From a virus (taxonomy: Duplodnaviria > Caudoviricetes), in the IMG/VR virus record IMGVR_UViG_3300013947_000019, positions 96,001 through 160,000 of that record: DNA of 64,000 bases, one strand, 5' to 3'. The notes beneath the pieces were generated by a model. The model searched no databases and was not told the origin of the DNA. It saw only the letters and a program-made list of their open reading frames with translations. This document shows positions 1,004 to 45,234 of this stretch, piece by piece; within the stretch, counting starts at the first letter, position 1; every line of letters starts with the position of its first letter. The position numbers and the translations under genes were made by a program.

Positions 1004-2047
1004 ATGGGTAACAATACGGATTTAACTGGACAGACATTTGATAAGTTAAAAGTAATTAGTTTCTATAAATCAATTAAAGGGTCTAAATATTGGTTGTGCC
1101 AATGCGATTGCGGAAATACTAAAATCGTAAGCACTTCTAGCTTAAGATCTAAATATGTTAGATCTTGTGGGTGTTTAGTAAAAGATAGTCACCCATATGA
1201 AGATTTAACGGGAAAAACTTTCAATATGTTAACAGTTAAACAATATGATCATACTGATAATAATGGTCATATTTATTGGTTGTGCCAATGCGATTGCGGA
1301 AACTATACAATTGTCCCATCTGGTAGATTAAAATATGGATATACTAAATCTTGTGGTTGTTTAAGACGTATTATTAGTAAACATCCGAGAATGCAATATG
1401 GTATTTATACTAAATATGGTAGATTTATAAAACAGTCGCCAATTGTAGAAACATATAGAAGCATGGTTGATCGATGTTATAACCCTAATAATGACTCATA
1501 TGAGCGTTATAAAAATATAGGAATTGACACAAGATGGTATGATAATAATAAAAAACATAATCCATGGTATTATGATTTAACCGGCTTAGTTAATTTTATC
1601 AATGATATGTATCCAAGCTATGAAGAACATATTGCTAAGTATGGACAGCATAATACATCATTAGATAGAATTAATGGAAAAAATAGGTATTCTAAAGAAA
1701 ATTGTAGATGGGCAACTTCTATTGTTCAAAATAATAATTTATCTTCAAATCGTCATGTGTTTGACGGTGAAGAAATACTCACTTTTTCCGAATGTGTTAG
1801 AAAATATATACCGATGAATTTATTATCTGAAGCATACCAAAAAGCCCCTGGAAATGTGTTCACTGTAAAATTAAATCGTGGATGGTCTGTTAATCAAATT
1901 TTAGCAATGTTTAAACATGCTAAAACTGATAATAGACTTTTGAAAAAATCTGAATTAAAAAATATTATGATTTGGAAAATTGATCAAAAATTAGTATATG
2001 AAAAATATCCAGATGAAGTTAGATTGCCTGGATATGAAAATTCATAA
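1004..2047 (+). CDS. Free-standing HNH-type homing endonuclease
   Basis: Two DLTGxTF...WLCQCDCG...SCGC repeats and SLDRINGKNRYSKENCRWAT..QNNN nuclease core. More AT-rich than its neighbours. Confidence 0.8.
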   Translation: MGNNTDLTGQTFDKLKVISFYKSIKGSKYWLCQCDCGNTKIVSTSSLRSKYVRSCGCLVKDSHPYEDLTGKTFNMLTVKQYDHTDNNGHIYWLCQCDCGNYTIVPSGRLKYGYTKSCGCLRRIISKHPRMQYGIYTKYGRFIKQSPIVETYRSMVDRCYNPNNDSYERYKNIGIDTRWYDNNKKHNPWYYDLTGLVNFINDMYPSYEEHIAKYGQHNTSLDRINGKNRYSKENCRWATSIVQNNNLSSNRHVFDGEEILTFSECVRKYIPMNLLSEAYQKAPGNVFTVKLNRGWSVNQILAMFKHAKTDNRLLKKSELKNIMIWKIDQKLVYEKYPDEVRLPGYENS

Positions 2048-2058
2048 TAGAAAGTGGG

Positions 2059-3084
2059 GTGAAACCCATTATGGCTAATTCTACATATGCTAATTTCTTA
2101 GTCGAATGTGGCTTTGAAGTCAATAAACCTGACTTCATCTTCTTAGATGAAGCTAATCAGGTACAGATTACTGATGAAGCACTCACTGGTATGATGAAGT
2201 TCATTACTGATAAATACAATAGTATTGATTTCAGTGAAATTGAGAAATCTGCTGGTGATTATAGTCGCTTTAAGTATAACAAGATGCTTGATGCTAATAT
2301 CAGAACTCTGAGAGATATTTATGAAGTAGCAGCTGAGACCGATAAGGGTGCTGCAAAGTATCTGGAAGTTATTGAAACCTGCTATGGTGTCATTAACTTA
2401 TTGACTGGATATCGCTCTGAGTTTACTACTCTGTACAAGGCTGGTAATGGTATCGTTCAGCTCCTCTATACATCATTGGTTGCAGGCCTGATTTATTGTA
2501 TCGGTATTTTGGTCAGTAATACAATTCGATTTGTTACTACCGAGAAAGATACAGATTGTGAAGTCCTGTTTGATGAGATTCCTGGCACGATTCGCAATTG
2601 TCATATTAAGAATATTCAGTTTGCAGCTAAGTCTGCTCCTGATTTCAGAAAATATTTGGATGACTGTATGATGAGATTGGAAAAGAGATCCAATATGTCT
2701 GAGAGTATTACTCTTGGTGCCACTCTTATTGGCATTGGTATCGGATTATATATGCTTCCCAAGGTGATCGTATTAATCCGTGAGATTATCTATTCGATCT
2801 ATTGTACTCGTACCAAGATCTCTGATATGCTTGCCGTTCAGCAGGATCTGATTAAGACGAATATTGAGTCTTTGGAAGCAGGTCGTGGTGATAAGAAGGT
2901 TATTGCTCGTCAGCGTAAGTGGGCAGAGTGGTTAGAGAAGTGGAAGAACCGTTTTGCTATGAAGGCTGATACTGTTGATAACTTAAAGCGAGCTCAGATG
3001 AAGAAAGAGAATGCTGCTCTTCGGATTGATAAGAATAGTCCGCTTATGAATCCGGATGAGTCCACCTCTGGAATTCTGCTGTAA
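2059..3084 (+). CDS. Probable virion protein
   Basis: 341-aa ORF in the structural cluster, with an MSES site followed by a hydrophobic helix. Confidence 0.5.
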   Translation: MKPIMANSTYANFLVECGFEVNKPDFIFLDEANQVQITDEALTGMMKFITDKYNSIDFSEIEKSAGDYSRFKYNKMLDANIRTLRDIYEVAAETDKGAAKYLEVIETCYGVINLLTGYRSEFTTLYKAGNGIVQLLYTSLVAGLIYCIGILVSNTIRFVTTEKDTDCEVLFDEIPGTIRNCHIKNIQFAAKSAPDFRKYLDDCMMRLEKRSNMSESITLGATLIGIGIGLYMLPKVIVLIREIIYSIYCTRTKISDMLAVQQDLIKTNIESLEAGRGDKKVIARQRKWAEWLEKWKNRFAMKADTVDNLKRAQMKKENAALRIDKNSPLMNPDESTSGILL

Positions 3085-13195: not shown

Positions 13196-13623
13196 CAAAA
13201 TCTTAACCTCTATACCATAACATAGAGTAACTCATCAGAGTTCTCTGGGAATTTACCCAGATGTTGAGACTATATCTCCACCCACTTATTTCAGTTGGGG
13301 TGCTGGCCGCTTCGAAACTCATGGATTTCGAGTTTCTACTCTACTCACTTCGTGTATATTTCTATACCTTATTTTCAACCCTGCTAATTTATATTAGCTC
13401 TTATGGATTTATAGCTTTCGATAGTCGTTGAACCTTCCTTAAGAAAATTAAGGCTTGGCTGCTAAGATTATACATTGTTAATGAATACTTAGGATTTAAC
13501 CATATATTCATCCTATCACTTGTTTCTACTTTCGTAACCATATAGGCTGATAGGCATTAGCATTTCCCAGCAATTCAACCAGTTTATACACGCACATTCC
13601 TGTACGCTGAGACCATATTGTTA
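13196..13623 (-). mobile_element. ORF-less group I intron (428 nt) in the RNAP active-site motif
   Basis: P1 GAGAU/GUCUC with U-G at the 5' splice site. Core motifs aattgctgggaa, agcagcc, gttcaacgacta, agatatagtct. Ends in G and restores the reading frame. Confidence 0.9.
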
Positions 13624-32244: not shown

Positions 32245-32329
32245 TGGTGGGGATAAGAAGATTTGAACTTCCACGCCTTTTGACACGAGAACCTAAATCT
32301 CGCGCGTCTACCAATTCCGCCATATCCCC
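32245..32329 (-). tRNA. tRNA-Leu(TAG)
   Basis: GGGGATA..TATCCCC acceptor, CGAGA-TT-TAG-GT-TCTCG anticodon arm, long variable arm, GTTCAAATC, encoded CCA. Confidence 0.95.
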
Positions 32330-32334
32330 ATAAT

Positions 32335-32763
32335 TTAATTTTTAATTCGCCCCAATTGTACTTGACGTGTATATGCACCACAGCAATGCTTAGAACAAAA
32401 TGGACCCATAATATGTTTGTTTTTCTTATCTTTTCGATTACTGTTTCGTCTTGCTTCTGATTGTTGTTTTTGTGTCCAAATAAATGTACATCCGCACCAT
32501 GGGCATTTCATAAATTTATTCTTATATTTTGAATTCTCTATAGCATGTTGTTTAAGATGATATTTTTTAAGTATAACTTCTAAATTATCCGGATCATTAT
32601 TATCTGGATTATGGTCTTTATGGTGAACATCTTCATCTAATTTGAGTTTACGACCAAGTTTTTCTTCCATAATAATTCTCGGATATGATCTTGTTGTATA
32701 TGTACCATCAGGTTTGCGACAAGAAACTATCAATCGCCCATAATTATTTCGATATGTTTTCAT
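32335..32763 (-). CDS. HNH homing endonuclease with C-terminal zinc finger
   Basis: VHHKDHNPDNNDPDNLEV; CPWC...FCSKHC. Confidence 0.85.
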   Translation of the reverse strand: MKTYRNNYGRLIVSCRKPDGTYTTRSYPRIIMEEKLGRKLKLDEDVHHKDHNPDNNDPDNLEVILKKYHLKQHAIENSKYKNKFMKCPWCGCTFIWTQKQQSEARRNSNRKDKKNKHIMGPFCSKHCCGAYTRQVQLGRIKN

Positions 32764-33188: not shown

Positions 33189-33263
33189 TGGTCCGAGCGG
33201 GGAATTCCGAGATCCCGGCCTCTTGTGCCCAAGACAAGCGCTCTGCCTCTGAGCTACGCCCGG
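33189..33263 (-). tRNA. tRNA-Pro(TGG) with non-canonical T arm
   Basis: CCGGGCG/CGCTCGG acceptor, CTTGT-CT-TGG-GC-ACAAG anticodon arm, CCA. T loop reads CTCGGAA. Confidence 0.85.
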
Positions 33264-33563: not shown

Positions 33564-35429
33564 TCAGATGTAATTCTGAATGAAACCTTCCAAGTGTACA
33601 GTACGAGCAGTGGCCAATTCATAAACTAGTGTGCTATTCTCAATCATAGTGGTGATAATAGATACTGGTTCAATGATTTGATTGTTAAATCGCGTTGTGA
33701 CTTCTTCGCCATTCGCTGCAGTATACTTACCAAACTCTTCATAATGTGAATCTACACCATTGATTTCATCAGCCGCAAAGATATCATTCAGATCCGTAAT
33801 ACCTTTCAGATTAAAATTCTTAATAGAAAATTCAGAATCCGAAATATGAACATTTGCGATATATTCAGTGACCATATTGTGAAGATCAACTATATCTACA
33901 TCAAAAGGACCATTATGAATCATATCAACTAAAGTATCAATAAATGAGTATTCAAAGATTGTACCTATGATCTGATTCTTATAATTATTCTCATGACGAG
34001 CTTTCTCTACATATTCATGAGAAATCAATGCAGCAAGTGCAAGAGAGTTACAATTAAGTACACCCTTCTCTACAGCTTCGGATGCAGACAACACTGCATC
34101 CAGAATCAATTCATATTTACGTTGAGAATCCTTCATTAACTTAGAGCCAATCTCAACTTCAATAAACTGGCCATAAGAAGTACGAAGACGTTTATTAAGT
34201 TCTAGTTTCTTGACTTCAGATTTTTCTTCATCCTGTTCTTTGCGCAGTTCATCATAACGAGCCTGTGCAACAGGACCAAGTTTCTTATGAATACGAATAC
34301 CCTTTACTTCATCAATATCAACTTGATATGAATCAGTAAACATCTCTTGAATCTTAGCCAGATGCCGTACATCACAATCAAATGTACAAAGTTCTGGGAT
34401 CATATCCTTATTAGATGCAATAGCTTGCCAGATAAGAGTTTCAAAGGTCAGCTGATTAACTAAACCACCAATACCTTTTTCATCAGTAATAATTGTACTA
34501 ATATCCTCCATAACCTCAGAGCTATAGGTTCGATAATCATCTAATGTAAAGATAGCTAAATTATTATAATCCTTGAAAAACTCTTCTACAGGAGTATTCC
34601 CTCGCATACTATTCAATTCAGCAATCAGAGATTTAAGAGTTCGTCTAGAAGCCTCACTGAGGCCATTACAGAGCACAATAATTGTCTTCGGATAAAATTT
34701 GCCGTTTGTATCCTGAGCTACATATCCCATCATAGCACGAATAACTTCTTCGTGTGCAATATCCAAAACACCATTACAGTGAAAAATTACACATTCTTTT
34801 TCCTCTGCTTTCATGGGACGAATAGAGAACTGTTTTGTAGCTTTAAAGAGCGGACTATTATGTACTGTCATGTTGAAATCTGTTGCAAGATTAGATTTAG
34901 CAATGGTGATATATGCACCATTCATCATCGCATCAGCCAGATTATATTCAATAGTAGCAGCCCAATCCGGATCTTGTACACATGTATAGAGCATTTGATG
35001 TAGATACTCACGTGTCATAGGAGCCTTATATGATTCAATAGCTTTGATAATATCATGAATGGTATTTTCCCAATCACGACGAGTAACAGTGCTGCAAGTA
35101 CGAGGAATCATCCCACGGATATTCTTATACATATTGGTATACAGAACACCAAGAGAAGTAGTACCATCTCCCACTTTATTGCCCTGCTGCTGAACTGCCT
35201 GATAAAGAATCTTCAGTACATACATAGAAAGCTCATTATCGAAACGAGTTAAACGCAGAGTTTCTTTACCATCTCGAGTATAGTAGGGAAGTCCATTCTG
35301 TGTCAGATAAGCATCTTTCGCATAGGGACCAAAAACAGTGACGATATCATCATGTAATTCTTTCATGGTTTTATCCATGATATCATAAAGATAATCGCCA
35401 CGAATCGCATTAGACTGGATGTTGATCAT
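33564..35429 (-). CDS. Phage GroEL-like chaperonin
   Basis: VFGPYA, YTRDGK, VGDGTTS, DAVLSASEAVEKG, IIEP. Start set at ATG 35429 after agagga. Confidence 0.85.
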   Translation of the reverse strand: MINIQSNAIRGDYLYDIMDKTMKELHDDIVTVFGPYAKDAYLTQNGLPYYTRDGKETLRLTRFDNELSMYVLKILYQAVQQQGNKVGDGTTSLGVLYTNMYKNIRGMIPRTCSTVTRRDWENTIHDIIKAIESYKAPMTREYLHQMLYTCVQDPDWAATIEYNLADAMMNGAYITIAKSNLATDFNMTVHNSPLFKATKQFSIRPMKAEEKECVIFHCNGVLDIAHEEVIRAMMGYVAQDTNGKFYPKTIIVLCNGLSEASRRTLKSLIAELNSMRGNTPVEEFFKDYNNLAIFTLDDYRTYSSEVMEDISTIITDEKGIGGLVNQLTFETLIWQAIASNKDMIPELCTFDCDVRHLAKIQEMFTDSYQVDIDEVKGIRIHKKLGPVAQARYDELRKEQDEEKSEVKKLELNKRLRTSYGQFIEVEIGSKLMKDSQRKYELILDAVLSASEAVEKGVLNCNSLALAALISHEYVEKARHENNYKNQIIGTIFEYSFIDTLVDMIHNGPFDVDIVDLHNMVTEYIANVHISDSEFSIKNFNLKGITDLNDIFAADEINGVDSHYEEFGKYTAANGEEVTTRFNNQIIEPVSIITTMIENSTLVYELATARTVHLEGFIQNYI

Positions 35430-36231
35430 CAGTTGTTTCCTCTTTTCTTCTATTGGGAATCTGAAGATTTGCAAATGGGGTAAATGTACCAAACTCGTAT
35501 TTCTTCTCTAATGTATAATAATACATCATCTCAGTCATCCTCATAATGCTTGGGTATTCTGGTTCATAGTTATACATATATCTTCCTACAATGAATGTGA
35601 TTGGGCCATTGTATTTAATACTATGTAATCTATTTGCCAAGAGTATAGCACATTCAATACTGGAACACATGACAGCATTTATTTGATATTGTTGAACAAT
35701 AGCACTTGCCATACGCATATCTAATATACGATCTGAAGTAAATACCTTTACTTTATCGATCCATGGTATAGGGAACTTATCACATTCATAACGCAAAAGA
35801 TAACCAGTTATAGTCTTCTTAGAAAAACATACACCGAACTGATCCATAATATCAGTTGGGCTAATTTTTATGATATCATTATTCAATAGGTTTGGAATCT
35901 GTTCTTCATATTGAATAATATCTATCTTATCTTTTGTATGAATAAATAAGTCCAATGGATTTAGACTATATGCACGTTGAATATAATATGCTAATTGTTC
36001 TTCATAATCATGAGAAGTAAGTATTGGATAAAATCGTTTATCTACCTGCACTGCAAAATCTTTATCAAGTAACATCATACGGAAGATATCAAAGCTATGT
36101 ACACGTGTCACATCATAATCGATAATTAACATACGTGTACTTGACATCATTTGAGGGAAAAGATCCAAACTAGGTCTACTTGCTTGAATCTCCTCTCGTG
36201 TCAATGTTTTCTTAGAATCTTCCATACTCAA
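35410..36231 (-). CDS. Hypothetical protein
   Basis: 273-aa ORF, coupled to neighbours. Confidence 0.6.
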   Translation of the reverse strand: MSMEDSKKTLTREEIQASRPSLDLFPQMMSSTRMLIIDYDVTRVHSFDIFRMMLLDKDFAVQVDKRFYPILTSHDYEEQLAYYIQRAYSLNPLDLFIHTKDKIDIIQYEEQIPNLLNNDIIKISPTDIMDQFGVCFSKKTITGYLLRYECDKFPIPWIDKVKVFTSDRILDMRMASAIVQQYQINAVMCSSIECAILLANRLHSIKYNGPITFIVGRYMYNYEPEYPSIMRMTEMMYYYTLEKKYEFGTFTPFANLQIPNRRKEETTDDQHPV

Positions 36232-38478: not shown

Positions 38479-39468
38479 TTAAATTCGAACAATGTTCGTA
38501 TAATAAGTCATTGTTGCTCCATTATGAGTTGTTTTTCCAGGACTCATCCCAAGAGGTTTGAAAATTTGCCCAAACAGTTTCATATTATCAGATACCAGAG
38601 TTTCTACATCGATAATAGATAACAACCATTCTGGAACTTCTTCTAACTCACTTGGCATAGCAATTGCTTTGATACCCTTACCCTTCTTAACTTTACCAGT
38701 TGCAGGATCAATGGTATCTCCTACTTCATCATTCTCATCAAATAACTTACAAATCTTCTTATAAATATCTGGCCATCTTTCTAATGGAGCTGCATCTTGT
38801 TTATTTCTTAACTGTACTTTGACCAAAGTAACAGTTGCTGGTAAATCAATTCGTTCTTTATCCGGCATTACATAATTCCAAATAAAGACTGCTTTATACT
38901 GACCAATTCGCATTGGATCTGCATATCCATCAGGAGTCTTTACTCGAATAGATCTCTTCAGATATCCAGTATTACCAGAACGAATTTCATTACCCATTTG
39001 TCTCTGGAAATCATTAATTGTCTTATACGTTCTTCTCAAAGATATCTTTTCATCGGGAGGATCAAGTAATTCACCCATCAATACTTTATCGTAGATAAAC
39101 TTACTTGTATCTTCAGACGCTGTACTCTTAAAGAAGTTAACACCTTTCACATCGATCTTTGGTTCTTTAAAGACAACCTCTTCCTGTCGTTTCTGAAGCC
39201 CAACATAGGACTTCTTGGCAAACGTAACCATAACTCGAGAATAATAAAACTCATTCTTCATATTAATATGCTGTCTATCTTCTTCAGCAATATTTGCAGT
39301 TCCACAATAAAACCACAAACGCTCCATAATTGCTTTTGTACTGAAGTTCGACAATACGTTTAATACACGAAGTTTATACGCTTCTCGATCTGATTTCTTT
39401 CTGAAAAGTTTTCCTTGAAGAACATTTTCGATCAGATATTTATAAAGTGAACCATAATGAAGAAAGTT
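38479..39468 (-). CDS. Family B DNA polymerase subunit, exon 3
   Basis: Begins AAC TTT (NF), in frame with ORF 38479-39354. Contains MKNEF, KKSYVG, DVKGV. Confidence 0.88.
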   Translation of the reverse strand, partial: NFLHYGSLYKYLIENVLQGKLFRKKSDREAYKLRVLNVLSNFSTKAIMERLWFYCGTANIAEEDRQHINMKNEFYYSRVMVTFAKKSYVGLQKRQEEVVFKEPKIDVKGVNFFKSTASEDTSKFIYDKVLMGELLDPPDEKISLRRTYKTINDFQRQMGNEIRSGNTGYLKRSIRVKTPDGYADPMRIGQYKAVFIWNYVMPDKERIDLPATVTLVKVQLRNKQDAAPLERWPDIYKKICKLFDENDEVGDTIDPATGKVKKGKGIKAIAMPSELEEVPEWLLSIIDVETLVSDNMKLFGQIFKPLGMSPGKTTHNGATMTYYTNIVRI

Positions 39469-39851
39469 CCTTGTTTTCAGATAGGGTCGTTATTCCTATC
39501 CCGTTCATAATGAACCGCTTACGGATTTCCCGTAAGAGAAGACTATATCATTCAACCACGCATTGGTGTGGTATATATTCTGCGCTTTGAGCTCACTTAA
39601 GCCCTCACTTACTCACGCTACCCATTACCATGCTAATGGACGCTTTCAATTAGTCGTTGAACCTTCATCCGTTCTGGATGCTTGGCTGCGGGTTAACCAA
39701 TCCTTATCTCTTTTACGATACATCTGGTCTTTCTCCAGATCCATAATCTACATTCCTGTGATTACTTCGTGTATAAGGCTCTAAGGTATAACTTATCATA
39801 AGTTACTTACGTTCCCGTCAATTCACAGAATTTAGAGATTCCCACTTCTTA
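39469..39851 (-). mobile_element. ORF-less group I intron B (383 nt) in the DNA polymerase gene
   Basis: P1 AGAUUCU/GGAAUCU with U-G. Core gaattgacgggaa, aacccgcagcc, gttcaacgacta, gatatagtct. Terminal G. Confidence 0.9.
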
Positions 39852-39860
39852 AGAATCTGT
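39852..39860 (-). CDS. 9-nt micro-exon encoding Thr-Asp-Ser of polymerase motif C
   Basis: ACA GAT TCT lies between the terminal G of intron A and the initial TAA of intron B, giving VID-TDS-NF. Confidence 0.88.
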
Positions 39861-40153
39861 CCTATAGTACCCCTAGTTTCCTAGTATTTAAAAGGGAGTG
39901 GACTATACAATCTCATATGAGTCGGTATTATAGTCTCTGAACGTCTACCACCGGCACTACCCGCTGAGGTATTTCGATGCGTCTGAGTGACTTGCACACT
40001 CGGTTACCCCTGACTTGATTGTTTTTATGGTTTCTGATCTTTTAAAGATATACCGCATTCACGCTTACCGTTTCCGGTTACGTTGTAGCCTATCAAGGTT
40101 ATGGGGGCTTTCCCGCAATTTAACCGATTTTACATCGACTAGATTTCAAGTTA
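39861..40153 (-). mobile_element. ORF-less group I intron A (293 nt) in the DNA polymerase gene
   Basis: P1 AUCGAU/GUCGAU with U-G. Core aaattgcgggaa, gttcagagacta, tgtatagtcc. Terminal G. Confidence 0.88.
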
Positions 40154-41158
40154 ATCGATAACAATGGTACATTTTCTTTTCTGATATCGAGTTCTATCTT
40201 CATATCGGAAGATACCATGTTTATAAGCTACAAATTCCAAAACCCAATCTGTTAACTTATCAATCATCGGTTTAATCTCTTCCGGCATAATATTTGGATC
40301 GATAAACTCTACATCAGCACATGCTATATCAGAATATAAATAAGCAGGTTTCTTCAAAGATAAAAACTCTCTGATATTTGCTTTATAATATACTCTGATT
40401 CGCATCTCATCACTTAAACTATCATATACCTGACCAATCTCTTCTGGATTACACAATGATTCATGACCAAACTTCTTCGTATATCGATCTATGAACTGTT
40501 GTCGACTTGGACTAATCCCCACAACATCCCATACATCATATTTCCAATCCGGTTCTTCATGAATGATATTATATACCCAGTTATAGAATTCAGTCATATG
40601 GAAGAATAATACATTATCTTCCAATAGATTTTCAAAACATTGACAAGCTGTACTGATCTGTCCACGACCACAGGATGTAACACTCATTGCTGAATGAATG
40701 TTATATAAAAAAGAAGAAGACTGACCTTCTGCACCATATCCTGAGTTTGCGGCCTTTTTATCGTTTGCTTGCTGAAGATCCTTAACCGCTGCTAAGAATT
40801 CATCACCAGCCTGCATTGCTTTAAACTTTTCTTTCTTATGAATCTTACGAATATCAAGCATATCATCCTTGATAATTTCGACATTCACATTACGCTTTTG
40901 CGACTTTGGATAAAAATAAACACCCGACTCAGCAATCAATGGTTTAGAATTCCTAAACCAATCCACTAAACTTAATAGTGTTGCTGATGCCAAAGTGTTT
41001 TCATAATTATTAAAAATCTTTACCTCTGTATCCTTTACGCGTTTTGCATATATCTGTGCAACCATCTCTTCTATCTTACTCTTCTCTACCTCTGGATGAG
41101 TTGCACACATTGCCATTGTCATACGAGAGATCCATTCGTGCTTCATTATCTCTTTCAT
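40154..41158 (-). CDS. Family B DNA polymerase subunit (motifs B and C), exon 1; spliced product about 667 aa
   Basis: Q...KKAANSGYG (motif B), VTSCGR, and ends IVID at the start of motif C. Confidence 0.9.
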
Positions 41159-41376: not shown

Positions 41377-41940
41377 ATGAGTAAGTTCCTGAATGACCTC
41401 CGTGCATTTGCCAATCGTGAGGATGATGTGTTCACCAATGAGTCCACTGAGATCGATGGTTTCGATTTCGAGAACGATGAGCAGTTCATGCAGGAGTGCT
41501 ATGCTGCTTGCCTTCCTTCTATTATCCAGAATGAGCTCCTGGGTGAGTCCGCTGAGATGATGGATGAGGCTACCCGTGAGGCTTTTGTTCGTGTTGCTGA
41601 TTACCTGGAAGGCCAGGGTTATCTGCCCATGAGCGAGTCCACTAGTGTCACGCTGAACCAGAAGACCAATGTTATCCATATGGGTAAGGCTGCTACGATC
41701 GCTCGTCTGAAGTCTATTATCACCCTGAAGATGGCTCGTAAGGCTGGTGATCGTAAGTTCACCAAGTATAAGATGGGCTGCAAGATCAAGAAGGATAACA
41801 TGGCTGAGATGAAGAAGAAGTATGGTGATAAGGCTGAGCGCATTGCTAAGAAGCTGTATGCTCAGACTCAGAAGAACCATAAGGTTTCTGGTGCTGTTTC
41901 CGAGAAGAAGGAAGAGATCAAGGCTAATAAGAAGAAGTAA
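41377..41940 (+). CDS. Probable head protein with acidic N-terminus and basic C-terminus
   Basis: TNES, LGES and MSES sites; AACA-N6-TA at 41240; strong RBS. Confidence 0.55.
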   Translation: MSKFLNDLRAFANREDDVFTNESTEIDGFDFENDEQFMQECYAACLPSIIQNELLGESAEMMDEATREAFVRVADYLEGQGYLPMSESTSVTLNQKTNVIHMGKAATIARLKSIITLKMARKAGDRKFTKYKMGCKIKKDNMAEMKKKYGDKAERIAKKLYAQTQKNHKVSGAVSEKKEEIKANKKK

Positions 41941-43068: not shown

Positions 43069-45234
43069 ATGAGTATGAATGGTATTCTGCCGATTAAAGA
43101 AGGTGGAATTGCAACAGTATTTAATGTGCTGGAATATAATCAATTTAAGCATCATGGTGATCATAAAGATAATGAACTTTTTATCACATATAGAGATGAA
43201 ACAGGAAAGAAAAATGTCCATCGGATTACAGAACCTCCGATGGAAATCTTTTTTGTAAAACCTGAATATAGAAAAACATTTTTAACACCAAGAGAATATT
43301 ATCCGATTGATAATGTATATCCTGCGAAGGTTCCTGCTCGAATGGTATTACGTAGAATTTATGATGAAATGAAAGTAATACCAGATCCAGTTGGTCAGAA
43401 GTTAGTTCAGGTATATAATAATGGAGTTACAACTGGTAATTCTCGAGTAAAGAAAGAAATCTTCAAATGGCCGTATGCATTATTTGGCGATATGTCAGTT
43501 GAAGATTATTATTGGGTTCAATTGGGTGTTCATTATGATTTATCTCATGGTGGTGTAATTGATAAAGTATTTGCCGATATCGAGAATGATATCTATGGAT
43601 TGAATTCATCTGAACAAGCAATGAATCTAGATCCGGTAAATGCTGTAACATTGATTTTTAATTTTGATCAAAAGAGTCAATGGTCGAAACTTGGCATTCA
43701 AGTATTCACTTTTTTATTAAAGGATTTTAAGAGATATCCTCAACAAGAAAAGTTTGTAAAGAACTTGGATGATTTTTATGCAGAATGTCATAAGTGTTTT
43801 GATGTTCAGACTGTTATTAAGAAAGGTAAGAAGAAAGATGTTCACACAAAAGCTGAATATCATATTGTAATGTGTGAAACAGAAGATGATCTTTTGAAGA
43901 ATGTATTTAATACAATTAATAAATTTAAACCTGATTTGTGTGAATTCTGGAATATGCCGTACGATATGCCGAAGATGAAAGCTCGTATGGAGATTCTTGG
44001 AATGGATCCGGTAGAAATTATGTCTGATAAGGATTTCTTTCCAAGAGATTGTCAGTATGTAGACTTTCATATGGATAATCGTCCGATTGATATTGCAGAG
44101 CGTAATAGTTATATTCGTATGACTTCTACAACTCAGTATATCGATCAGATGCAGAATTATGCGGGTATTCGTAAAGGACGTAAAGCATATGGTTCAAATA
44201 AGTTAGATAATATTGCAAACATTGAACTTGGTATGGGTAAGTGGGATTTCCAAAAAGGCATCGATGTGACAAATGCTGCAATCTTGGATTATTGGAACTT
44301 TGTTCTGTATAATATTCGAGATGTTTGGTGTCAATATTTGATTGACTTTGTGACCAATGATACGATGTCTCTTGTATACGATATGAATCAGCATAATTGT
44401 CCGCTTCATCATCTGGTAAAGCAGACAAAGTATCAGAAACAAATTTATTATGCTGGATATCTGAGAAGAGGATTTGTTCCAGGTCATAATATCAATGTAA
44501 ACTATACAGAGTTTGCAAATGAGGAAGAAGCTGAGAAAGTAGAAGAAGCTCGTAAACGGAAAGCTCTTCGAATGGCTTTGGATAAGTTAAATCTGGATGA
44601 AGACGATATTGATGTTTCTTTGTTAGAAGGTATTGAGTCAGTAGATGATTTGGTTACCAGTATTGGTGAAGATAGTATATCTAATTCCGATAATAATGAT
44701 GATGAAACATCTGAAGCAGCTAAAACGGAAGCAGCAAATGCATATGATGAAAATCTAGCAATCTTTGAAGATAGTCCAAATCGTAAGTTACCATTACCTG
44801 GTGGTCTAGTTGGTAATCCAGATAATAACTTTGCAAATGGTGCAGAGTTAATTGATGGTATTCCGAGTAAGCATGTTTTTGATGAGGTAATGGATGAAGA
44901 CTACGCATCTGAGTATCCTTGGGCAAAGTTTACAAGATCACTATCTCGTTCTACTCAGATTGGTAGGTTAATTATTCCTCATAAAGTCAGTAAATATCAG
45001 AATCTGTTACCACTTGGTCAGATTAAACGAAAGGAAGATACAAAGTATTATATCTCTGGTGCAGAATTTACTGGAGATTATCTTTCTCAGGATTATCTAT
45101 CTCTTGGTGCAGCATGGTTTAATCTTCCATTGTCAGATGAATGTGGTGATATTGTTGACATGATGTTGGAAGGTAATTCTCTTGATGAAGCTTTGAAGAA
45201 AGTTGAAGAAAAAGACGGACAGGACTCGAAATGA
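43069..45234 (+). CDS. Family B DNA polymerase subunit with 3'-5' exonuclease and motif A
   Basis: ExoI FADIEND, ExoII WNMPYD, SNKLDNIA, ExoIII YNIRDV, and motif A-like DEDYASEYP. Confidence 0.85.
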   Translation: MSMNGILPIKEGGIATVFNVLEYNQFKHHGDHKDNELFITYRDETGKKNVHRITEPPMEIFFVKPEYRKTFLTPREYYPIDNVYPAKVPARMVLRRIYDEMKVIPDPVGQKLVQVYNNGVTTGNSRVKKEIFKWPYALFGDMSVEDYYWVQLGVHYDLSHGGVIDKVFADIENDIYGLNSSEQAMNLDPVNAVTLIFNFDQKSQWSKLGIQVFTFLLKDFKRYPQQEKFVKNLDDFYAECHKCFDVQTVIKKGKKKDVHTKAEYHIVMCETEDDLLKNVFNTINKFKPDLCEFWNMPYDMPKMKARMEILGMDPVEIMSDKDFFPRDCQYVDFHMDNRPIDIAERNSYIRMTSTTQYIDQMQNYAGIRKGRKAYGSNKLDNIANIELGMGKWDFQKGIDVTNAAILDYWNFVLYNIRDVWCQYLIDFVTNDTMSLVYDMNQHNCPLHHLVKQTKYQKQIYYAGYLRRGFVPGHNINVNYTEFANEEEAEKVEEARKRKALRMALDKLNLDEDDIDVSLLEGIESVDDLVTSIGEDSISNSDNNDDETSEAAKTEAANAYDENLAIFEDSPNRKLPLPGGLVGNPDNNFANGAELIDGIPSKHVFDEVMDEDYASEYPWAKFTRSLSRSTQIGRLIIPHKVSKYQNLLPLGQIKRKEDTKYYISGAEFTGDYLSQDYLSLGAAWFNLPLSDECGDIVDMMLEGNSLDEALKKVEEKDGQDSK

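Follow-up and report, generated by a model that had tools for sequence, protein, structure and literature searches.

A predicted nine-nucleotide exon between two group I introns in motif C of a divergent family-B DNA polymerase gene from an uncultured jumbo phage

Group I introns are classical inhabitants of phage polymerase genes, where several may interrupt a single gene, derivatives without an open reading frame (ORF) occur and the intron opens with an in-frame UAA, as described for SPO1, Bastille, Twort-like and T4-like phages (PMC11878797, PMC3984707); in gut jumbo phages, a mean of 18 introns per genome has been reported (PMC12880540). Natural tandem group I introns with a short exon between them are likewise on record, and two sources list an exon of 23 nucleotides (nt) in Twort orf142, one of 34 nt in the Coxiella 23S rRNA, a 'small exon' in the ribonucleotide reductase gene of phiNIT1, and a further case in SIOphi (PMC10136302, PMC11878797). 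In AR9-like jumbo phages, namely AR9 and the Staphylococcus phages MarsHill, Madawaska and Machias, introns reside in genes for RNA polymerase (RNAP), DNA polymerase, gyrase and terminase (bioRxiv 10.1101/2020.12.14.422802). Group I self-splicing, the homing mechanism and tandem introns with short exons are therefore not new in themselves. The subject here is a 64,000-nt stretch (the window), bases 96001-160000 of a 259,863-bp IMG/VR virus record (IMGVR_UViG_3300013947_000019) that CheckV rates as complete and that comes from an uncultured AR9/PBS1-like jumbo phage. In this window, a gene for the catalytic subunit of a DNA polymerase has been invaded twice, 9 base pairs (bp) apart, within the codons of motif C (V-I-D / T-D-S / N-F), by two unrelated mobile group I introns, called A and B below. 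What is new is the micro-exon between them, which is shorter than the phage and bacterial examples found and sits within the catalytic motif of a family-B polymerase from a jumbo phage.

When the locus is set beside these systems, Twort orf142 of a Staphylococcus phage, with three group I introns and a 23-nt internal exon (Landthaler and Shub 1999, via PMC10136302 and PMC11878797), offers the same combination of a phage protein gene, tandem group I introns and a very short exon, with skipping as the obvious alternative. The introns flanking the 23-nt exon, however, are close IA2 paralogues, whereas the present exon has 9 nt, its introns are unrelated, its bases are common to the P10 of one intron and the P1 of the next, and its splicing is a prediction. 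The polymerase introns of Bastillevirinae (PMC11878797) are similar in their number (up to three per gene), in their phrog_59 HNH endonucleases (as in the relatives L027 and L028 of the present locus) and in their common ORF-less derivatives, but they occupy family A polymerases, in contrast to the motif C of a divergent family-B catalytic subunit. The AR9-like jumbo phages belong to the same lineage and have the same set of genes invaded; the polymerase gene of AR9, unlike the present one, is uninterrupted, and neither a double insertion in motif C nor a micro-exon was seen in the annotated AR9-like records examined. Finally, the tandem ('side-by-side') introns and micro-exons of organelles (fungal mitogenomes, PMC6279837, PMC12308204; placozoan cox1, PMC5436844) also leave few or no exon bases in between and are also missed by gene callers. 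Those introns are often maturase-dependent and usually carry LAGLIDADG ORFs, whereas here an essential phage gene houses ORF-less or HNH-bearing introns.

The gene is read from the minus strand as three exons (Table 1), and precise removal of both introns restores the reading frame together with the conserved protein sequence. In tblastn comparisons with four uninterrupted homologues (AR9, PBS1, Internexus and SA1), exactly 9 nt lie between the exon-1 match, which runs through residue 335, and the exon-3 match, which starts from residue 1. The joined exons (..TIVID-TDS-NFLHYG..) align gap-free over the junctions with AR9 g152 and the SA1 protein around VxDTDSNF (MAFFT; TIVIDTDSNFLHYG versus VLVVDTDSNFLML and VLTVDTDSNFVHL), so that the T-D-S of motif C comes from nine bases. 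Both introns open with an in-frame UAA, have a U.G pair at the 5' splice site and end in G (..AUAGG/ACAG for A and ..ACAAGG/AACU for B). A cut of intron B placed one base leftward on both sides (..TTC / ..AAG / GAAC) would yield the same protein, and was rejected since cleavage would then follow a C rather than a U, contrary to the U.G rule. The first-pass annotation of this DNA had proposed that three exons, one of them of 9 nt, make up the DTDS motif of a family B polymerase; all its coordinates, lengths and strings on the minus strand proved correct, including AAUCU at 40141-40145 and the guide GGAAUCU at 39842-39836, and its reading of the motif is borne out by the homologue alignment that it had suggested, by PF20286 and PF00136, and by the allele series described below. 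Its remark that gene callers would miss the tripeptide also holds, because the polymerase is called as two ORFs and the Asp-bearing TDS is not shown; likewise, GenBank presents the polymerase catalytic subunit of Staphylococcus phage PB50 as two coding sequences and that of Listeria phage LPJP1 as two hypothetical proteins.

From its sequence, the interrupted gene is assigned to the catalytic subunit of a divergent family-B DNA polymerase (PF20286, divDNApol). Exons 1 and 3 match this family at 53.2 bits (1.9e-14) and 98.8 bits (3.2e-28), respectively, with a Pfam cut-off of 25.7, and both match phrog_2927 (exon 3 at 3.3e-39). Exon 1 further matches PF00136 (39 bits, 5.5e-10) and contains a motif B, KKAANSGYG (KxxxNSxYG), which aligns to motif B of poxvirus and pol-delta structures, a sequence search of the Protein Data Bank having yielded weak motif-B matches only. 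Motif C, DTDS, exists only once the three exons are joined. Among named phages, its closest counterparts are the 'DNA polymerase catalytic subunit' genes found in Bacillus phages AR9/PBS1 and in jumbo phages of Staphylococcus, Listeria and Yersinia, with which it shares 24-30% identity (tblastn). At the nucleotide level, megablast of the locus against GenBank phages returned two intron-core matches of ~45 nt only, and the exact junction string ACAGATTCTTAAGAAGTGGGAATCT was not found in IMG/VR beyond its own record, the relatives L026 and L028 each having one base different in that stretch. The G+C content of the introns (42.7% and 41.3%) stands against 34.8% for the exons and 36.1% for the window.

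Table 1. Features of the interrupted polymerase gene, its neighbourhood and related loci. Positions are those of the window unless another record is named; identities refer to exon 3 at the amino-acid (aa) level.
Feature	Position	Strand	Description
Exon 1	40154-41158	-	335 codons; ends ..ACC ATT GTT ATC GAT (..TIVID, first Asp of motif C)
Intron A	39861-40153	-	293 nt, ORF-less; begins UAAC, ends AUAGG
Micro-exon	39852-39860	-	9 nt; ACAGATTCT / ACAGAUUCU = Thr-Asp-Ser of motif C
Intron B	39469-39851	-	383 nt, ORF-less; begins UAAG, ends ACAAGG
Exon 3	38479-39468	-	329 codons + stop; starts AAC UUU CUU CAU (NFLHYGSLYK)
Intron A guide GUCGAU	40134-40139	-	predicted P1 with exon-1 AUCGAU; U.G at splice site; -5.8 kcal/mol
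AAUCU, P10-like partner of micro-exon AGAUU	40141-40145	-	directly 5' of intron A guide; -2.9 kcal/mol
Intron B guide GAAGU-G-GGAAUCU	39836-39848	-	predicted P10 with exon-3 ACUUU, -3.2 kcal/mol; P1 (39842-39836) with AGAUUCU, -6.6 kcal/mol
Intron A R element / P7 5' strand	39929-39942	-	GUUCAGAGACUAUA; from covariance-model alignment; S / P7 3' strand at 39900-39909; P7 compensatory changes in nrdD relative
Intron A P8 hairpin	39912-39921	-	10 nt, CUCAUAUGAG; HNH ORF occupies same place in L027, L028
Intron B R element / P7 5' strand	39651-39662	-	GUUCAACGACUA; from covariance-model alignment; S / P7 3' strand at 39540-39549
Relative L029			88% identity; no intron; ATCGAT ACCGACTCT AACTTC uninterrupted
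Relative L012			72% identity; no intron
Relative L011			98% identity; A only; intron A then directly ACAGAYTCA AAT..
Relative L030			90% identity; A only; junction type as L011
Relative L027			98% identity; A only; ~750 nt extra in P8 of intron A
Relative L026			100% identity; A + B; other metagenome; 96% nt identity over all 2680 nt
Relative L028			98% identity; A (with insertion) + B; 258-kb contig
Staphylococcus phage PB50 (L003, OR770614)	2332-2520		~190-nt insert with R and S elements at intron A site exactly: ..ATCGAT / .. / ACAGATAGTAAC
Listeria phage LPJP1 (L017, MZ422438)	~1317-1880		~560-nt insert, 4 nt upstream of intron A site: GTGGT / UAAUG..GAAAG / TGATACCGAC
Exonuclease-domain polymerase subunit	43069-45234	+	721 aa; phrog_3011, weak PF03104; divergent, ~1.9 kb upstream of catalytic subunit
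Small virion-protein gene	41377-41940	+	phrog_26909; between exonuclease-domain and catalytic subunit genes
Free-standing ORF	32335-32763	-	142 aa; weak HNH match to intron A endonuclease, 35% identity over 51 aa, E 8.9e-5; adjoins two tRNA genes
Two tRNA genes	32248-32329 and 33192-33263	-	

Intron B is the more readily recognised of the two. It matches Rfam family RF00028 at 45 bits (E 5.1e-10) over the full model (1-253; window 39518-39876), with E 3.2e-11 in the genome-wide search, where RF00028 has 7 matches in all, and the L028 copy of the intron scores 44 bits. Its minimum free energy (MFE) has a z-score of -2.88, and the MFE fold recovers P1, P3, P6a, P8, P9, P9.1 and P9.2, with P1 also present in the centroid fold. 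The model alignment shows an insertion of ~64 nt between P7 and P3', the place where P7.1/P7.2 of IA-type introns sit, as well as the extra 3' hairpins P9.1/P9.2, and the R-element region is common to many phage group I introns. On these features intron B reads as a group I intron. A relative of it in crAss-like phage cr271_1 (L025, MT774394, ~660-1020) splits a DNA polymerase between ..LHHD and ..SYYPSIMI; this insertion point looks like motif A (DxxSLYPS), and the intron B family would thus target a different catalytic motif of a different polymerase.

Intron A, which shows no significant similarity to intron B, matches RF00028 at 13.7 bits with E 1.2 (39879-40180), or E 0.07 in a single-family genome search; the alignment places J3/4-P4 (AAUUGCGGGAAA), the R element (GUUCAGAGACUA) and the S element (UAUAGUC) correctly. 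It is taken as a group I intron because of homology, the match to a profile of its relatives and covariation, and not because of its RF00028 score. It is homologous over its full length to intron 2 of an RNAP beta' gene of the same genome (L006:1532-1871), which itself reaches 27.4 bits (E 5.7e-6) against RF00028, and also to an nrdD intron of an unrelated human-gut phage contig (L018:1487-1761), which splits the C-G-Y-I-G glycyl-radical motif. A profile built from those two relatives alone has 39864-40144 as its sole match in the 64 kb (nhmmer, E 6e-36). Within the family, helices P1, P4, P5, P5b, P5c, P6, P7 and P9 pair in 93% of cells, versus 34-40% with the partners slid, and the four-member alignment shows compensatory change in 16 of 37 pairs. 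This count excludes P3 and P8, as MAFFT mis-registers P3' and P8 of RNAP intron 2, and these were read by eye; RNAalifold for its part has no representation of the P3/P7 pseudoknot and mis-paired P5 with P9. P1 shifts with the host exon (AUCGAU/GUCGAU, AUGGAU/GUCCAU, GUGGAU/GUCCAC) while the U.G pair is invariant, and P3, by eye, covaries as well (UCGGU/ACCGA, UCUACC/GGUAGA, UCGAU/AUCGA). Intron A has an extended P5 region and is without the P7.1/7.2 insertion; its L011 copy terminates in ..AAAUG. Two different group I introns, each with a TAA start, a terminal G and the U.G pair in P1, had been claimed from the letters, and this claim stands, on RF00028 for B and on homology and covariation for A. 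Core segments of both introns recur in Staphylococcus Twort-like and K-like phages, Bacillus SPO1-like phages, the E. coli rV5 terminase and a crAss-like polymerase. As regards the nrdD intron (MT835556, human faecal phage contig), it is 275 nt long, splits the protein at ..RRTCG Y/IG.. and has an 8-bp P10 (ACCGAUAU/AUAUCGGU) and a 6-bp P1.

With this anatomy, each ribozyme would excise independently by two transesterifications, in which an exogenous G attacks after the U of the U.G pair and the exons are ligated after the terminal G. The resulting mRNA would include the 9-nt exon and encode an intact DTDS, and translation of unspliced RNA would stop at the in-frame UAA opening each intron. 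The guide region of intron A reads 5'-AAUCU-A-GUCGAU. Bases 3-9 of the micro-exon are predicted to form P1 of B and bases 3-7 could form P10 of A; the double pairing of AGAUU noticed in the first-pass annotation is thus present in the sequence, at -6.6 versus -2.9 kcal/mol. Since P1 of B lies wholly inside the micro-exon, intron B would be able to recognise its 5' splice site before or after the excision of A. Each guide pairs weakly with the splice site of the other intron (-0.6 and -0.7 kcal/mol), and this lack of cross-recognition, together with the unrelatedness of the two ribozymes, favours inclusion of the exon over skipping, in line with an engineering study in which distinct splice-site recognition elements favoured exclusive exon inclusion (PMC10136302). 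We infer that two independent self-splicing reactions with inclusion of the exon are the likeliest course, and A and B are very probably functional group I introns flanking a 9-nt exon that is retained in the mRNA.

Several points nevertheless weigh against this interpretation. At Rfam gathering thresholds, the window contains two tRNAs only, the intron matches having come from E-value mode. The covariance-model check that the first-pass annotation had called for does find two separate RF00028 cores in that mode rather than a single one, but neither reaches the gathering score (B 45 and A 13.7 versus 50 bits), and the E-value of A is poor. The fold of intron A is no better than that of shuffled sequences (z -0.41), and its covariation set consists of four sequences, three of them independent, one of which also served as the source of the structure. 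The same five bases of a 9-nt exon would be contested by P10 of A and P1 of B. Finally, there are phage group I introns whose splicing occurs in vivo only (PMC11878797), and true self-splicing of A and B is therefore not assured.

The competition for these five bases raises the possibility of ordered splicing, in which AGAUU would be needed for both P10 of A and P1 of B, the reactions would be coupled, intron A would be able to align its 3' exon only once B had finished or let go of P1, and an order of B then A would be obligatory. The two pairings are mutually exclusive, P1 of B should out-compete P10 of A by the free energies given above, in the relatives of intron A this part of the guide makes a clean and strong P10 (8 bp in nrdD, 6 bp in RNAP intron 2), and a distinct intron A 3' end in all alleles with B might be a co-adaptation. 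An obligatory order is nevertheless unlikely: P10 is dispensable in many group I ribozymes, P10 of A has just 5 bp in a register offset by two exon bases, and the same weak P10 exists in L011, which carries A only and where the competitor is absent. If there is any order, B would be favoured first, or A would ligate without P10.

Skipping of the exon as a significant outcome would join exon 1 to exon 3 and give an in-frame polymerase without Thr-Asp-Ser, which could be dead or dominant-negative and might tune replication. The loss of 9 nt does preserve the frame, and two sources document skipping in Twort orf142 (23-nt exon), in the Coxiella 23S rRNA (34-nt exon) and in Bacillus phage SIOphi, where ~47% of transcripts skip (PMC10136302, PMC11878797). 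Here, however, the introns are unrelated and therefore no single chimeric ribozyme is possible; the weak cross-recognition between the guides and the preference of distinct recognition elements for exclusive inclusion, both mentioned above, point the same way, the P10 guide of A has a poor partner in exon 3 (-1.6 kcal/mol), and strong purifying selection argues against a leaky essential gene. Skipping on a significant scale would seem quite improbable. An equally small chance is given to a broader proposal, namely that a 9-nt exon is near the lower size limit for a double role as 3' exon of one ribozyme and P1 substrate of the next, and that the overlap of P10 of A with P1 of B and the B-specific 3' end of intron A amount to a co-adaptation enforcing an order or a tunable in-frame delta-TDS fraction; if true, phage replication would depend on a two-ribozyme checkpoint.

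The model of two introns around an included exon is consistent with the natural alleles of the locus. Scanning IMG/VR and metagenome contigs with exon 3 gave seven close relatives, whose states were read by blastn and from the junctions (Table 1). Intron A is absent from L029 and L012 precisely at its site, and intron B is absent precisely at its site from both of these as well as from L011, L027 and L030; in the alleles that lack B, and in those that lack both introns, the exons join at the bases predicted in the first-pass annotation. Together with the two RF00028 cores and the 9-nt gap in tblastn, this exceeds chance by far. TDSNF is encoded by 8/8 alleles (the window and its seven relatives), and the double-intron allele occurs in three independent assemblies (window, L026 and L028). 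Codon differences between the exons of the window and those of L011 number 121 synonymous and 11 nonsynonymous, so that the gene must work in either state, and efficient splicing is implied. Over its first ~250 nt, intron A is better conserved between these two alleles (about 98%) than the exons are (92-94%).

These data also bear on whether the interrupted gene might be a decaying pseudogene, or its inserts not spliced, with another polymerase doing the replication. Apart from the RF00028 scores, which are both under the gathering threshold, this has little to recommend it and is very improbable, since both large exons are intact and under the purifying selection just described, the double-intron allele recurs in independent assemblies, and conservation extends to the intron cores, the U.G pairs and the terminal G residues; moreover, a second catalytic subunit was not seen within the window, which has only the separate exonuclease subunit. 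One 685-nt composite intervening sequence (a twintron or single intron) with TDS as a chance in-frame string, as the abutting Rfam matches (39876 and 39879) might suggest, is refuted by the allele series, for L011, L027 and L030 carry A alone, followed by ACAGAYTCA and exon 3, the nine bases are ordinary coding sequence in L029 and L012, the profile of intron A relatives stops at 39864, and TDS is needed by all homologues. The series likewise excludes an assembly artefact and defines both introns to the base.

The same alleles carry marks of mobility. In L027 (~1114-1833) and L028 (1297-2052), the insertion in P8 of intron A is a 252-codon ORF with matches to HNH_3 (1.5e-12) and phrog_59 (2.7e-24); elsewhere in the genome to which the window belongs, there are distant HNH relatives only. 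The presence or absence of this ORF suggests its loss or gain inside one intron lineage, and the intron A of the window is an ORF-less derivative; intron B has an ORF in none of the copies seen. Alleles with B (B+) share one form of the last ~45 nt of intron A, with a P9 hairpin CUAG-GAAA-CUAG in place of the UCGG-GAAUA-CCGA of alleles without it (B-), a difference that is itself compensatory. They also have TCT, not TCA, as the last codon of the micro-exon, TCT supplying the U of the U.G pair, and a run of synonymous differences common to them opens exon 3 (8 in the first 21 nt versus L011), the block reaching 12 to 21 or more nt into this exon; in L028, this synonymous run stops between nt 12 and nt 18 of exon 3, a shorter tract. 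Such a haplotype block linked to intron B would be as expected of co-conversion in homing or of recombination, the alternative being a co-adaptation of the intron A 3' end to its neighbour B. Taken with the presence/absence polymorphism at fixed sites and the endonuclease borne by intron A in relatives, the B-linked flank haplotype points to mobile introns.

Motif C attracts insertions elsewhere in the lineage. Including PB50 and LPJP1 (Table 1), three insertion sites fall within 14 nt of motif C: GT/T GAT in LPJP1, GAT/ACA in the window, L011 and PB50, and TCT/AAC in the window. The PB50 and LPJP1 inserts were not detected by RF00028 at E <= 0.1; by their R/S motifs, splice-site U and terminal G only, they appear group-I-like. 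The tblastn matches of PB50 resemble those of Machias.

Other introns of the genome lie in RNAP genes. Outside the window, an RNAP beta'-like gene contains a tandem pair of abutting RF00028 matches (G000:C1:207670-208390, plus strand; L006:1151-1871; 16.8 and 27.4 bits) inside G-A-D-x-D-G-D, the second of which is the intron A paralogue. With GCG GAC T closing exon 1 and GAC GGT GAT opening the last exon, 2 (or 2+3n) exon bases only would lie between the two introns. A relative, G001, is interrupted at the same place with ~750 nt more, and a clean intron-less allele of the pair was not obtained from the RNAP locus of G002, the genome of L012. In the window itself, an ORF-less group I intron at 13196-13623 (minus strand; RF00028 47.7 bits, E 4.6e-12) directly follows ..GAC TTT GAT GGA GAT (DFDGD) of another RNAP beta'-like gene; it has a UAA start and a guide GUCUC for exon GAGAU.

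The polymerase is divided at the gene level into an exonuclease subunit and a catalytic subunit, as in AR9. The gene order upstream is also that of AR9, with a virion protein gene on the opposite strand, whereas the downstream neighbour differs, being a gene like those for dNMP (deoxynucleoside monophosphate) kinases here and a 5'(3')-deoxyribonucleotidase gene in AR9. In the same region as the free-standing ORF and the tRNA genes of Table 1, a 642-aa ORF (33564-35492, minus strand) has an N-terminal GroEL/Cpn60-like region (PF00118 3.6e-9; phrog_5725) and may be a phage chaperonin.

Clearly, a tripeptide bearing a catalytic Asp can be invisible to gene callers, and this matters for the annotation of such genomes. 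The series of alleles (none, A, A+HNH, A+B and A+HNH+B), with 82-96% nt identity and visible co-conversion tracts, constitutes a natural experiment which could address the minimal exon between two ribozymes, the competition between P1 and P10 as a determinant of splicing order, and the hitch-hiking of an ORF-less intron on the endonuclease of its neighbour. With its three sites in motif C, the lineage illustrates the strong convergence of homing elements on those codons of essential genes that are best conserved, and the doubly interrupted polymerase represents an extreme case of the known invasion of phage genes by mobile introns.

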